From assembly GCA_016210045.1 (NCBI GenBank), contig JACQUX010000019.1, positions 4,102 through 68,101 on the forward strand: DNA of 64,000 nucleotides, written 5' to 3'. The DNA comes from Deltaproteobacteria bacterium. GTDB taxonomy: Bacteria > UBA10199 > GCA-002796325 > JACPFF01. The notes under the pieces are model-generated. The model did not search any database. It was not told the DNA's origin and saw only the letters and a list, made by a program, of their open reading frames with translations. Shown here in pieces: positions 32,801 to 35,490 of the stretch; the stretch's first letter is position 1; every line of letters begins with the position of its first letter. The position numbers and the translations under genes were made by a program.

Positions 32801-34336
32801 GTCGCGGTCGGTGCGCGCGGTCTGGCGACCGGCGGCATCGAAGTCGAGCGTCTCGCGGGCGGTGGCGTCGCTGAGCGTGGCCGTTCCGTCTGCGTGTCGC
32901 GTGAGAAGGATCCCGGGGTCCAGCGGATGATGCAGGACGTCCCGGCCGATCCGCCGGATGCGGTGGTGTTTGCTGTCGGCAATATAGATCGTGCCGCCAG
33001 GAGCAAACGCAACGCCGCTCGGCCCATCGAATCGCGCTTGGGTGGCGGGTCCGCCATTGCCGTGATCACCGAAGAGAGAATCGCCTCCCGCGAACGTTTG
33101 TCCCGCAATTGTCGTGACGATCTCGTCGAGGCCGAGCCGGCGCAGGCGTTGCCCGCCGTTCTCGGTGAAATAGATCTGCCCCGCGGAGTCGAGCGCCAGC
33201 GCGACCGGCCCATTGAGTTGCGCGCTGGTTCCCGCAACCCCTTCTCCGTTATATCCGGCGGTCCCGTCGCCGACCAGGGTGTCGATGATCCCGGCCGGAT
33301 TGATGCGTCGGATCCGGTGGTTGAGCGTGTCGGCGATGTAGACATAGCCGAGCGAATCAACGGCGACATCTTCGGGGACATTCAGTCGAGCCGCCGTCGC
33401 GAGCCCGGTATCGCCGCTGCTGCCGGCCGTTCCGTTCCCGGCGATCGTCAGGATGATCCCGGATGGGTCGACGCGCCGGATCACGTGGGCGCCGGGATCG
33501 GCGATATAGATGTTGCCGTGTGGGTCGACGTCGACCTCACTCGGGCGTGTCAGCTGGGCGGCCGTCGCGGGCCCGCCGTCGCCGGAATATCCCGCACTGC
33601 CGGTCCCCGCGACCGTCGTGATGACCCCGCTTCGGTCCACCCGCCGCACTACGTGGTTGCCGTCGTCGGCGATATAGAGATTCCCATCGGCATCGACCGC
33701 CAGGTCCGTGGCGCCGTTGAGTTGTGCGGCCGTCGCCGATCCCCCGTCGCCGGTGTAGCCTGGGATACCGGTGCCGGCGTAGGTCGCAATGATCCCATGG
33801 GGGTCGATGCGGCGGACCCGATGCCCGCCCGACTCGGCAACATAGAGGGCACCGTCTGGAGCGATCGCCAATCCGGCAGGATGACTGAGCTGGGCCCCCG
33901 TGGCCGTGCCACCATCGCCGCTCGCGCCGGGCTCGCCGTTCCCGGCGATCGTCTCGATCAGGTCGGCACGCAATGGGACCGCCGTTCCGGAACCGTCCGC
34001 CAGCAACACCGCTCCCCCGTCGGGAGACCAGAACAACCGTCGCAAACCGACCACGCCCCAGCCGGAACCGACCGGACTCTCCCGCTGGTTATGGATCGCC
34101 AATTCGCCACCGCGCCCGGCGGTCAACGGGACAAGTTGGTCGGTCGCAATGCCTGTCGTGCGCTCGGGCGGACAACCGAAGCAGCGGGCCGTGGCGTATT
34201 GGCCGGCGAAGTAGTGGGTAATCTCGGCCTGATACGGATAGAGCCCTGATGGGAACGGCTCGCCCTCGGGTGCATCCACAGGCACGGCCGCGGCGAGCGC
34301 CATCGAGGCGGCCGGGGTGAAGCGTTGCGCAATCAT
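29849..34336 (-). CDS. NHL-repeat / RHS(YD)-repeat polymorphic toxin with a divergent C-terminal toxin domain
   Basis: About 1495 aa from MIAQRF. Six NHL-type repeats (LYIAD..NHVIRRID), then dozens of YD repeats (YTYD..G.L). RHS core ends [34 protein letters not shown], followed by an about 150-aa low-GC tail. The ATG overlaps the upstream lipoprotein stop (ATGA at 34333-34336). Confidence 0.85.
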   Translation of the reverse strand: MIAQRFTPAASMALAAAVPVDAPEGEPFPSGLYPYQAEITHYFAGQYATARCFGCPPERTTGIATDQLVPLTAGRGGELAIHNQRESPVGSGWGVVGLRRLFWSPDGGAVLLADGSGTAVPLRADLIETIAGNGEPGASGDGGTATGAQLSHPAGLAIAPDGALYVAESGGHRVRRIDPHGIIATYAGTGIPGYTGDGGSATAAQLNGATDLAVDADGNLYIADDGNHVVRRVDRSGVITTVAGTGSAGYSGDGGPATAAQLTRPSEVDVDPHGNIYIADPGAHVIRRVDPSGIILTIAGNGTAGSSGDTGLATAARLNVPEDVAVDSLGYVYIADTLNHRIRRINPAGIIDTLVGDGTAGYNGEGVAGTSAQLNGPVALALDSAGQIYFTENGGQRLRRLGLDEIVTTIAGQTFAGGDSLFGDHGNGGPATQARFDGPSGVAFAPGGTIYIADSKHHRIRRIGRDVLHHPLDPGILLTRHADGTATLSDATARETLDFDAAGRQTARTDRDGRMTKYSYDDQRLSSMTDPLGQITLLTYDADFRLQSITDPQQRTTQLDHDDHGNLTSLTLPDGSRWQFTYDTDHRMVMKTDPQGETTHYTFTPSGAVTSVAFPTDETWQLETVHYDGSVTADAGTESDPLPAPPAATTTAFTDGEGGKWAYAFDRRGFVTRTTDPLDRVTTITRDAQSRPVKILSPEGRPTHFQYDAMGRLTDYTRGGGNEAWDVDVAYDAQGNVAELETQGIGRRYTYDEQRRILSAVDDNNATTTYAYDVAGLVRTVTDPLGTTTTLDRDAQGRVVAVTDSLGTVATYAYDAAGNPTHITNANGESTQFAYDAMNRLSQLVDANGGVTDLGYEVAGCGCSPAERVTHWSDPLGNTWRYTYDALGQLTAWTDPQGATETRAYDWNRQLQRIATRTGATIEFGYDAAGQLVTRSADGETASFTYDADGLLLSAATVDRTYTYTYDLAGRPAISQSGTGPDLTLDYHWWHSQESSRITGLPHKIERIFDFAGRWTRVSTDLYDGSASLSYDQGGRWTSRWSTAYDSQALAYDPRGRVAQITFNGPHGQHLLQYGYDAVGNIVARTDVATTRAFSYDPLDQLLSATNPAEAYTYDVAGNRLTGPDDTQYWYLAPNRILATLRDAVTNSYTTDAAGRLTEQIRDGLTTTYTWDAFDQLRRVQSGDAVVDFNYDAFGRRIERQQTVVGVTTTERYVYDGVQRIADYDGENNLIAQYFFGPGIDQPLFEIRDDVVRHYYVDGQGNVIQVAGKTTADLATYQYDSFGRPLAATGPTAEQPPFRFTGREWDAATGLYYYRARYYDPSLGRFLTEDPLGLASGDANLYRYVGNNPVNWRDPNGTDIWIEGPNSYEPYRHQSISVGDPNGTYSSYSFGMNGRWLLQGEVYRDTKPGGIIEAFKRTTPFQDVTFNAQLSSEVGNTGIYGITDICRSYSQHNFERAPGVIGAPPIRTTPVITEPSFFFTSSTRAPSTSGTWTSR

Positions 34337-35490
34337 TCGCCCGGCCACGCGCACCTGATAACCCACTTGTGCCGGGAGCAGCGCATTGGGGTTGCGCTCT
34401 CCGGGTCCTTTTGGAAGGCCACGCGCGCCGTCGGGGCCGCCGTCGCGCTCGAATACGCCAGCGTCACCCCGTACGTCGCATCGAGCAGTGCATAGGACGG
34501 GAGCGCAAAGGACTGCATCAGTTCCCCGCTCGCCAGCTTGACCTCCGAGCCGCCGCAACGGCCGTCGCCCAGCCCGACCGAATCCGTCGTCTGCGGCGCA
34601 ATCGCCGTGGGATTGATGGCTCCCGGCGGCATGATGGTCGGGTAATTCAAATCGCGCGGTGAGAAATGGGTGACCTGGTATTCGATCCAGGCCCCATCGG
34701 CCGATATCTTGCCCATCCCCTCGTGTTCCCATTCGGCCGTAGTCTTATTGAAATACCCGACCGGGATCGCGGTACCAGCGGCGAAGCCGCGCGTATTCTT
34801 CACCCGGATCGTGACCGGCTGCGCGAACTGTTGCCCTTCCGGACCCAGTTCGATCGCATGTGTAAAAAAGGAGGTGGACGGCAATGGCCCCGGCAGCGCC
34901 TCGCCAAACGGAAATGCCGTCGCCCGAACCACAGTGCCGACCGACACCGCGCCGGCCGGGGCCTCGACTTGGACCAGCCCGGACGCACTGGTATGACGGC
35001 TCCCTTCGGGACGGAGCGTCCCGATCGCGGCATCCAGCGGTGTCAGGTAGATCGTGCCGACCGCCGTCGGCTGTTGCGCATGCACGGCAAATTTCCGATA
35101 CGCCGACGTATAGTGCAGATGGTGGATGTCGAGAAAGAAGACGCCGCTGCCGTGGACCGGCGTGACGGGAAAACGGAAGCTCCCGTCGTCCCCCGTGACC
35201 AGTTCACCTTCTACGCCACGAACTTGGACTACTGCGCCGTTCAACGGTGCCTTGGTGGCGGTATTGCGGACCGTGCCGACGAGCCATCCACTTTCCGGCG
35301 TCGCAAGGGCTGGCTGCCCCGCGGCCACCCAGCCTTCATCGTTGCCGCCGGGCAAATCGATCAGGCCACTGACTTGTGCAAGTGTCGGGAGGTCGCCTCC
35401 GTCCGCGCTCCCCTCGTCGCGGCAGCCGGCCAACGCCAGTGCCACGCACCACCACACCACCCAGATTCCCGCACGACTCCGCTCGCACAT
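34333..35490 (-). CDS. Lipoprotein with carboxypeptidase-regulatory-like (CarbopepD_reg/Cna-B-type) beta-sandwich domain, translationally coupled to the RHS gene
   Basis: Signal peptide plus lipobox (VALALAGC); GTVRNTATKAPLNGAVVQVRGVEGELVTGDDGSFRF is typical of CarboxypepD_reg-like domains; ATGA coupling. Confidence 0.7.
   Translation of the reverse strand: MCERSRAGIWVVWWCVALALAGCRDEGSADGGDLPTLAQVSGLIDLPGGNDEGWVAAGQPALATPESGWLVGTVRNTATKAPLNGAVVQVRGVEGELVTGDDGSFRFPVTPVHGSGVFFLDIHHLHYTSAYRKFAVHAQQPTAVGTIYLTPLDAAIGTLRPEGSRHTSASGLVQVEAPAGAVSVGTVVRATAFPFGEALPGPLPSTSFFTHAIELGPEGQQFAQPVTIRVKNTRGFAAGTAIPVGYFNKTTAEWEHEGMGKISADGAWIEYQVTHFSPRDLNYPTIMPPGAINPTAIAPQTTDSVGLGDGRCGGSEVKLASGELMQSFALPSYALLDATYGVTLAYSSATAAPTARVAFQKDPESATPMRCSRHKWVIRCAWPGE

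Follow-up and report, generated by a model that had tools for sequence, protein, structure and literature searches.

RESULTS

Two overlapping reading frames on the minus strand

The stretch of DNA analyzed here, referred to below as the window, comprises 64,000 nucleotides of a contig (JACQUX010000019.1, positions 4,102 to 68,101 of the forward strand; GenBank assembly GCA_016210045.1) assigned to a Deltaproteobacteria bacterium. The subject of this study is a pair of adjoining open reading frames (ORFs) on its minus strand, read in the original prediction as a lipoprotein gene translationally coupled to the gene of an RHS toxin; we argue below that they are probably two pieces of one gene for a lipid-anchored, teneurin-like toxin. 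The first ORF (34333..35490) encodes 385 amino acids. Its N terminus, MCERSRAGIWVVWWCVALALAGC, shows basic residues, a hydrophobic core and, by motif reading of the sequence, an L-A-G-C23 lipobox (LALAG-C23). The Pfam family CarboxypepD_reg (PF13620) matches residues 71 to 149 with an E value of 1.1e-7 and 32.6 bits, barely above the cut-off of 32.3 bits. The second ORF (29849..34336) encodes 1495 amino acids from its ATG and carries NHL and RHS domains: Pfam TEN_NHL (E=1.2e-40), NHL (E=8.6e-32) and RHS_repeat (E=5.5e-90, in 16 stretches), together with YD_repeat_2x (E=2.9e-66) and Rhs_assc_core (TIGR03696, E=3.1e-26).

The TGA of the first ORF (34335..34333) overlaps the ATG of the second (34336..34334) as ATGA, and the NHL/RHS frame is also open for 396 nt upstream of its ATG, to 34732. 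Thus, the lipobox protein with a CarboxypepD_reg-type domain, the overlap of its stop with the RHS start, and the roughly 400 nt at its end that are open in both frames were all as the original prediction had described them. Neither the ATGA nor the open upstream frame amounts to more than chance, since ATGA requires only an A before TGA and long spurious ORFs are common at the G+C content of this region (60 to 69%); one spurious ORF of 724 amino acids occupies 32075..34249 on the opposite strand.

Relatives of the lipoprotein are single long proteins

A word-indexed search with the 385-residue ORF returned three proteins only. One was identical and is annotated in a Deltaproteobacteria metagenome-assembled genome (MAG). 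The other two, P0002 (the closest relative, with 48% identity) and P0003, run in one frame through the junction and into sequence matching the N terminus of the RHS ORF. HMMER, run exhaustively against 1.84 billion cluster representatives, identified 924 relatives. Among the 149 best relatives of the 385-residue ORF, 91 were at least 1500 amino acids long and 123 continued for at least 100 amino acids beyond the matched region; the match ended at a median query residue of 357, and passed residue 370 in just 4 of the 149. Likewise, all 17 homologs in a MAFFT alignment with the window protein, its frame repaired by -1, read straight across the junction. A locus search with a smaller alignment yielded only four loci, and at locus L007, in a GTDB genome, the same module lies in one ORF of 2020 amino acids with CarbopepD_reg, NHL and RHS domains. 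At least 15 of the 88 relatives that are full-length single chains begin with a lipobox-type N terminus; in P0005 the lipobox is LLLVTAC.

A recurrent split at the same position was sought among the short relatives and was rejected: P0029, P0093, P0104, P0138 and P0148 proved to be contig-end truncations or to carry unrelated junk tails, and no two-gene form recurred among the short relatives inspected, all of which were contig-end fragments or were frameshifted elsewhere. Junk tails, at differing positions, were seen in the metagenomic relatives P0003, P0032, P0049, P0063, P0123 and P0138 of the N-terminal module. Because several metagenomic relatives carry such tails, frameshifted or misassembled copies of these long genes appear to be common in public data.

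The idea of a dedicated, translationally coupled lipoprotein partner is refuted by these homologous loci, which show one uninterrupted ORF, the outcome that the original prediction had itself named as refuting it. Neither the gene pair nor the ATGA junction is kept in related loci, the 17 aligned homologs and L007 all being single ORFs. The possibility that the original prediction had ranked lower, an N-terminal part of the RHS protein cut off by a frameshift, is the one that the alignment, the -1 repair and the tblastn frame switch support.

Place and consequences of the frame change

With P0002, P0005, P0020 and P0043 as queries, tblastn placed a switch from frame -2 to frame -1 between 34426 and 34378, 40 to 90 nt upstream of the ATGA, and the ends of the high-scoring segment pairs (HSPs) of P0002 and P0020 narrowed it to 34381-34396. 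The MAFFT alignment of 17 homologs shows homology in the first frame as far as ...TAAPTARVAFQK361, after which the -1 frame continues it directly with GPGERNPNALLPAQVGYQVRVAGRMIAQRF. The DNA at the switch reads TTC CAA AAG|GAC CCG (34416..34402). A conceptual -1 repair at this point gives a protein of 1880 amino acids, which BLASTP aligned with P0005 (1976 amino acids) in one HSP over residues 62-1787 at 38.7% identity. Codon-position base composition was also considered across the junction, but only 72 nt separate the shift from the ATG, too few for a frame to be assigned. The features of the junction are as follows.

34405..34416, minus strand: frameshift site, TTC CAA AAG|GAC, at which the homologous frame moves by -1 (tblastn, MAFFT and BLASTP of the repaired protein)
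34333..34407, minus strand: out-of-frame tail, residues 362-385 (DPESATPMRCSRHKWVIRCAWPGE), with the TGA stop; no match in any homolog
34333..34336, minus strand: ATGA overlap, its ATG being Met386 of the repaired protein, an internal position of the domain called FN-plug

Because homology changes frame about 70 nt upstream of the ATGA, residues 362 to 385 of the first ORF are out of frame and the ATG is internal. The zero-frame tail includes VAFQKDPESATPMR, and 24 conserved residues (GPGERNPNALLPAQVGYQVRVAGR) would be encoded by neither predicted protein. At the position aligned with Met386, in a beta-strand region, the homologs have V, I, H, R or E, so that the methionine is not conserved. 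Translation from the ATGA would yield a product with MIAQRFTPAASMALAAAVPVDA and then PEG at its N terminus (34271..34336, minus strand), a sequence that by eye looks superficially like a Sec signal with a V-D-A cleavage motif. This resemblance is probably a coincidence, as in the homologs the aligned stretch is a hydrophobic strand of the FN-plug.

The repaired gene has the architecture of a teneurin-like protein

The profile of the N-terminal module matched the structures 9ifo and 9pt5, named "teneurin-like protein", with an E value of 5.6e-32 over residues 400-842, contiguously across the frameshift position. Teneurin-like proteins (TLPs) have been defined by a superfold of FN-plug, NHL and YD shell, recognized with three hidden Markov models (HMMs) and preceded by TTR and TIP domains, TIP occurring in 96% of TLPs (PMC13018210). 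Their toxin, of about 15 kDa, lies at the C terminus inside the shell and is cut off at an RHS-core motif (PxxxxDPxG, with a second DPxG upstream); a second self-cleavage occurs inside the FN-plug, at G723|S724 in the protein BiTLP, with C719 upstream. TLPs have an immunity gene directly downstream, and those of Gram-negative bacteria have Sec/SPII lipoprotein signals (PMC13018210). The corresponding parts of the window gene, listed from the N terminus, are these.

35422..35490, minus strand: start codon, signal peptide and lipobox (residues 1-23, L-A-G-C23), from the translation; predicted SPII signal
35044..35280, minus strand: TTR/CarboxypepD_reg beta-sandwich (residues 71-149), matched by PF13620 (E=1.1e-7); predicted local distance difference test score (pLDDT) of the model 86-97
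34648..35022, minus strand: TIP domain (residues ~157-281), modeled as a ZU5-like beta-sandwich; profile match to 9ifo 400-627 and from 682 onwards; pLDDT mostly 88-97
34408..34647, minus strand: linker and first part of the FN-plug in the first frame (residues ~282-361); HMM alignment to 9ifo 682-842; low pLDDT when modeled alone
34546..34557, minus strand: C312-G-G-S315, equivalent of the BiTLP G723|S724 site, aligned with BiTLP C719...G723-S724
33962..34408, minus strand: remainder of the FN-plug in the -1 frame (repaired residues 362-~510), with the motifs YxYxxE...FG and SGWG; from the alignment and 9ifo 776-842
32939..33961, minus strand: NHL beta-propeller (TEN_NHL E=1.2e-40, NHL E=8.6e-32), its boundaries taken from sequence landmarks
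30266..32938, minus strand: YD/RHS shell and RHS core with the autoprotease motifs DPLG...PVNWRDPNG (RHS_repeat, YD_repeat_2x, Rhs_assc_core)
29849..30265, minus strand: C-terminal toxin domain of 138 residues and stop codon; G+C content falls to 47%, and the size fits the ~15-kDa C-terminal domains (CTDs) of TLPs

The order FN-plug, NHL and YD shell is complete only after the -1 frame repair and is collinear with P0005. TTR and then TIP precede the FN-plug, as indicated by the CarboxypepD_reg match, the profile match to 9ifo 400-627 and the two-domain model. The twin DPxG motif, the FN-plug cleavage serine and the lipoprotein signal can all be recognized at the sequence level. The predicted autoprotease has DPLG at residue 1330 of the RHS ORF and PVNWRDPNG at residues 1349-1357, placing two aspartates 24 residues apart. 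Serine or cysteine occupies the FN-plug cleavage position in 121 of 139 relatives, and Pfam TTR_TEN1-4 matched 5 of 11 family members. An AlphaFold model of the 385-residue ORF was confident at residues 61-285, which form two beta-sandwiches, and poor at residues 287-385, a result that we read as half an FN-plug without its shell. Foldseek searches with this model gave metazoan teneurins first (8fia, E=7e-8; also 7bam, 8r50 and 6fb3), the TTR domain of carboxypeptidase D (5aq0) on the first domain, with a TM score of 0.7-0.8, and ankyrin ZU5 structures (3f59, 3ud2 and 4d8o, with E values of about 1e-5 to 1e-4). The 138-residue CTD had no sequence match in Pfam or PDB. Judged by sequence and domain order, the window gene is a bacterial TLP, with SPII signal, TTR, TIP, FN-plug, NHL, YD shell, RHS core and toxin; one uninterrupted coding sequence is what it lacks, owing to the -1 frame change at 34405..34416.

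In this context, the alternative of a genuine two-gene system can be weighed. Here the RHS protein would start at the ATGA, and the lipoprotein, translationally coupled to it, would serve it as a distinct partner, whether as anchor, adaptor or chaperone. The ATGA overlap is real, and both gene callers and the public record list two separate coding sequences. In addition, TLPs are naturally cut nearby, at a G|S site 46 residues upstream of the shift (PMC13018210), and the start of the Met386 product, as described above, is weakly signal-peptide-like by eye. However, no relative is split at this position, the short ones being contig-end fragments or frameshifted elsewhere; the ATG is internal and nonconserved, within an FN-plug beta strand; the signal-like stretch aligns with that ancestral strand; the "lipoprotein" ends in 24 residues that have no match; and 24 conserved residues are left in neither product. 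We therefore regard two genuine genes as extremely improbable.

Origin of the frame change

We consider it likely that ORFs 34333..35490 and 29849..34336 are one lipid-anchored TLP toxin gene, and that it was disrupted, most likely, by a genuine 1-nt deletion. One base would have been lost from the A or the G run of AAAAGG (34407..34412), the ancestor having read CAA AAA GGA or CAA AAG GGA, both of which encode Q-K-G. At the frameshift point P0005 has E-K-G.

An artefact of assembly or sequencing would mean instead that the AAAAGG run is one base longer in the true genome and that the TLP gene is intact. The window does come from a MAG, the metagenomic relatives named above carry junk tails at other, unrelated positions, and the 1495 downstream codons are fully intact. 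However, contigs assembled independently from the runs SRR12113390 (4155 bp) and SRR12113401 (1195 bp) both match the window over the site with 100% identity. All nine large housekeeping genes in the window are likewise unbroken, namely those for squalene-hopene cyclase, RecG, PNPase, IF-2, NusA, DnaK, NadE, acyl-CoA synthetase and SecY. A run of A4/G2 is also too short to be a typical hotspot of short-read sequencing error. An artefact is thus unlikely, and the same sequence from two runs, together with the intact housekeeping genes, makes a genuine 1-nt deletion the most likely cause of the shift.

Several observations weigh against that conclusion. A consensus error retains a low probability, since the comparison is of assembled contigs. 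No database relative exceeds 50% identity, so the ancestral state is not demonstrable at the DNA level. The 4.5 kb past the shift is a perfect ORF with all motifs, and therefore either the mutation is recent or the gene is still expressed somehow. Finally, the shift coincides with the sole in-phase A_AAG of the ORF, followed by a stable hairpin that pure decay would not predict.

34372..34404, minus strand: hairpin of 33 nt, a possible frameshift stimulator, starting 3 nt past A_AAG, with 5 nt to the inner stem; -16 kcal/mol, z=-3.75

The last of these observations points to -1 ribosomal frameshifting, leaky or programmed, in which tRNA-Lys would slip from AAG to AAA on A_AAG with the help of the hairpin, making full-length TLP beside a commoner short TTR-TIP lipoprotein. 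The tetramer, CA A_AAG G (34408..34412), is the only in-phase one in the 1158-nt ORF and stands at the shift located by homology; the slippage product, ...AFQK-GPGER..., agrees with the homologs. As few as 1.35% of the 33-nt segments on the strand fold as well as the hairpin just downstream. In Escherichia coli, no tetramer is more prone to shifting than A_AA.G, for which a stimulator raises the frequency to as much as 5.6% (PMC4066793). Yet the tetramer alone is barely over background there, at 0.15% versus 0.11% (PMC4066793), and the window has the tetramer only, not an X_XXZ_ZZN heptamer. The motif is no discriminator either, because any deletion in an A-run leaves an A-run, so that A_AAG is expected under plain mutation too. 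The 3-nt spacer to the hairpin is short, the surrounding 101 nt show no excess of structure over shuffled sequence (z=+0.39), and hairpins at least this stable occur about twice per kilobase on the strand. No relative requires the shift, including the nearest, at 48% identity, and all 17 aligned homologs, and recoding has not been reported for TLPs. Bacterial -1 frameshift signals, as in dnaX and the IS1 and IS3 transposases (A_AA.G class, PMC4066793), resemble the site in having an in-phase A_AAG and then a stem-loop; the window site differs from them in lacking the heptamer and, by eye, an upstream Shine-Dalgarno-like stimulator, in its short spacer and in a shift that is not conserved. We consider recoding quite unlikely as the explanation. 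Its extension to an expression switch, in which most ribosomes would make the short lipoprotein of TTR and ZU5-like TIP and a few percent would slip to yield the toxin-loaded TLP, we hold to be very improbable; under it, translation would control the dose of a dangerous surface toxin.

Phase variation by slipped-strand mispairing was also considered and is unlikely, because the run is only A4/G2. An intact allele was sought as well. The repaired junction peptide of 330 amino acids was not found among 5.8 billion proteins, and flexible DNA patterns did not detect the allele in the JGI metagenome contigs or the GTDB representative genomes; the source MAG is absent from both collections, so nothing follows from this on allele frequency.

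If a deletion did break the gene, the consequences can be sketched from what is described for the family. In the intact form, the SPII signal would lead to Sec export and lipidation at Cys23; TTR and TIP would join the anchor to the FN-plug, which would seal the YD/RHS shell, on which the NHL propeller would sit. The shell would hold the 138-residue toxin, cut at PVNWRDPNG, and the chain would also be cut at G314|S315 inside the FN-plug. In the present form, normal translation would give the 385-residue lipoprotein with TTR, TIP, half an FN-plug and 24 junk residues, and reinitiation at the ATGA would give a shell protein without the lipoprotein signal and without 71 plug residues. Neither split product equals a natural TLP cleavage product. 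With both products incomplete, the TLP gene here is probably inactive or nearly so, and the apparent coupling at the ATGA would be a by-product of the shift.

A conserved HFS motif at the end of the TIP domain

One feature of the first ORF lies outside the question of the frameshift.

34660..34668, minus strand: HFS motif closing the TIP domain (residues 275-277); HF[S/T/C] is near-invariant

In the 149 best relatives, the histidine is present in 134, the phenylalanine in 145 and a serine, threonine or cysteine in 146, and an aspartate stands three residues past the serine (the seventh column of THFSPRD) in 135 of 147. In the alignment with BiTLP the motif falls at residues 684-686, where S686 corresponds to S277 of the window protein. 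PIDD cleaves itself at HF/S immediately behind a ZU5 domain, and CARD8 and NLRP1 do so at SF/S (PMC3210808); neither ZU5 nor HFS is mentioned in the main text of the TLP paper (PMC13018210). By analogy, and with TIP ZU5-like in the model, HFS may mark an additional point of self-cleavage, at which the toxin shell would be released from its anchor.

Neighboring cassettes

Downstream of the toxin, where the G+C content dips to 47-53% over the cassettes, and upstream of the lipobox ORF, the following were identified.

29562..29864, minus strand: very hydrophobic ORF of 100 residues, candidate immunity gene, overlapping the toxin stop by 16 nt; G+C content 47-51%; placed as TLP immunity genes are
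28277..29526, minus strand: orphan cassette of an RHS-core tip with an alternative toxin domain (248 residues, 28780..29526) and a putative immunity ORF (168 residues, 28277..28783)
28029..28267, minus strand: second, degraded RHS-core remnant, split over two frames
35613..36734, minus strand: upstream neighbor, an amino acid dehydrogenase of the Glu/Leu/Phe/Val type, closest to the model of the tryptophan dehydrogenase ScyB (E=6e-119)

The 100-residue membrane ORF had no family match; from its position it is a candidate for the cognate immunity protein of the 138-residue toxin. The orphan tip matches Rhs_assc_core with an E value of 9.4e-21, and its CTD shows an S-x-H-x-x-G-x-A-x-D / H-x-H pattern with nonsignificant hints of a LAS metallopeptidase (Peptidase_M15_3, E=0.22; Hedgehog-N, E=0.6). 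The 168-residue ORF next to it has a lipobox-like N terminus and is a putative periplasmic immunity protein. The RHS-core remnant at 28029..28267 suggests an array of displaced toxin tips. The dehydrogenase, which scored 397 bits against the ScyB model, under its cut-off of 600 bits, appears unrelated to the toxin.

DISCUSSION

The public record and the gene callers list an RHS protein and, separately, a "carboxypeptidase regulatory-like" lipoprotein; the two are best read as one disrupted teneurin-like toxin gene. The main value of the analysis is corrective, in that calling the pair a new lipoprotein-RHS partnership would be mistaken: the locus is most likely a broken copy of a TLP family described in 2026, not a new partner protein. 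It adds a lipobox-anchored member of deltaproteobacterial type to that family and shows the usual decay and cassette swapping of polymorphic toxins. The conserved HFS motif, with the additional self-cleavage site that it suggests, may be more useful than the frameshift finding itself.

The closest known system is BiTLP of Bacillus inaquosorum (PDB 9ifo/9pt5; Raoelijaona et al., Nat Commun 2026, PMC13018210), which has the same order of TTR, TIP, FN-plug, NHL, YD shell, RHS core and small polymorphic CTD. TLPs also share with the window protein the serine of the FN-plug cleavage site and the twin DPxG motifs; its SPII-type signal is of the kind reported for Gram-negative TLPs, and a small ORF lies directly downstream, where TLPs have their immunity genes. 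In contrast to them, the window gene is interrupted by the -1 frameshift inside the FN-plug and is followed by orphan toxin/immunity cassettes, and its protein has no extra adhesion domains between lipobox and TTR and a CTD without a recognizable fold. That paper also overtakes the statement in the original prediction that dedicated lipoprotein partners are not a standard described component of RHS toxins, as it includes Sec/SPII teneurin-like RHS proteins of Gram-negative bacteria. Metazoan teneurins (chicken Ten2, 6FB3; fly Ten-m, 8FIA; human Ten4, 7BAM) share the TTR domain and the superfold of FN-plug, NHL and YD shell, but they have no TIP, no RHS-core cleavage and no encapsulated toxin, and they are type II transmembrane receptors rather than lipoproteins (PMC13018210).

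The Rhs effectors of type VI secretion systems (T6SS) and the BC subunits of ABC toxins enclose a C-terminal toxin in a YD/RHS shell, have a plug at the N terminus, undergo double autoproteolysis and are followed by an immunity gene, all as predicted for the window toxin. Delivery of the T6SS type was considered for the window protein and was rejected, because no PAAR, VgrG or Eag was detected when the two ORFs, together with those in 28277..29526 and 35613..36734, were scanned against Pfam and NCBIfam, and because the protein has a predicted Sec/SPII signal. The dedicated partners of those systems (EagR, VgrG/PAAR and TcA) are the model behind the idea of a dedicated lipoprotein partner. In the window, by contrast, the upstream neighbor is an amino acid dehydrogenase, and a single polypeptide would carry both the predicted Sec/SPII export signal and the supposed "partner".

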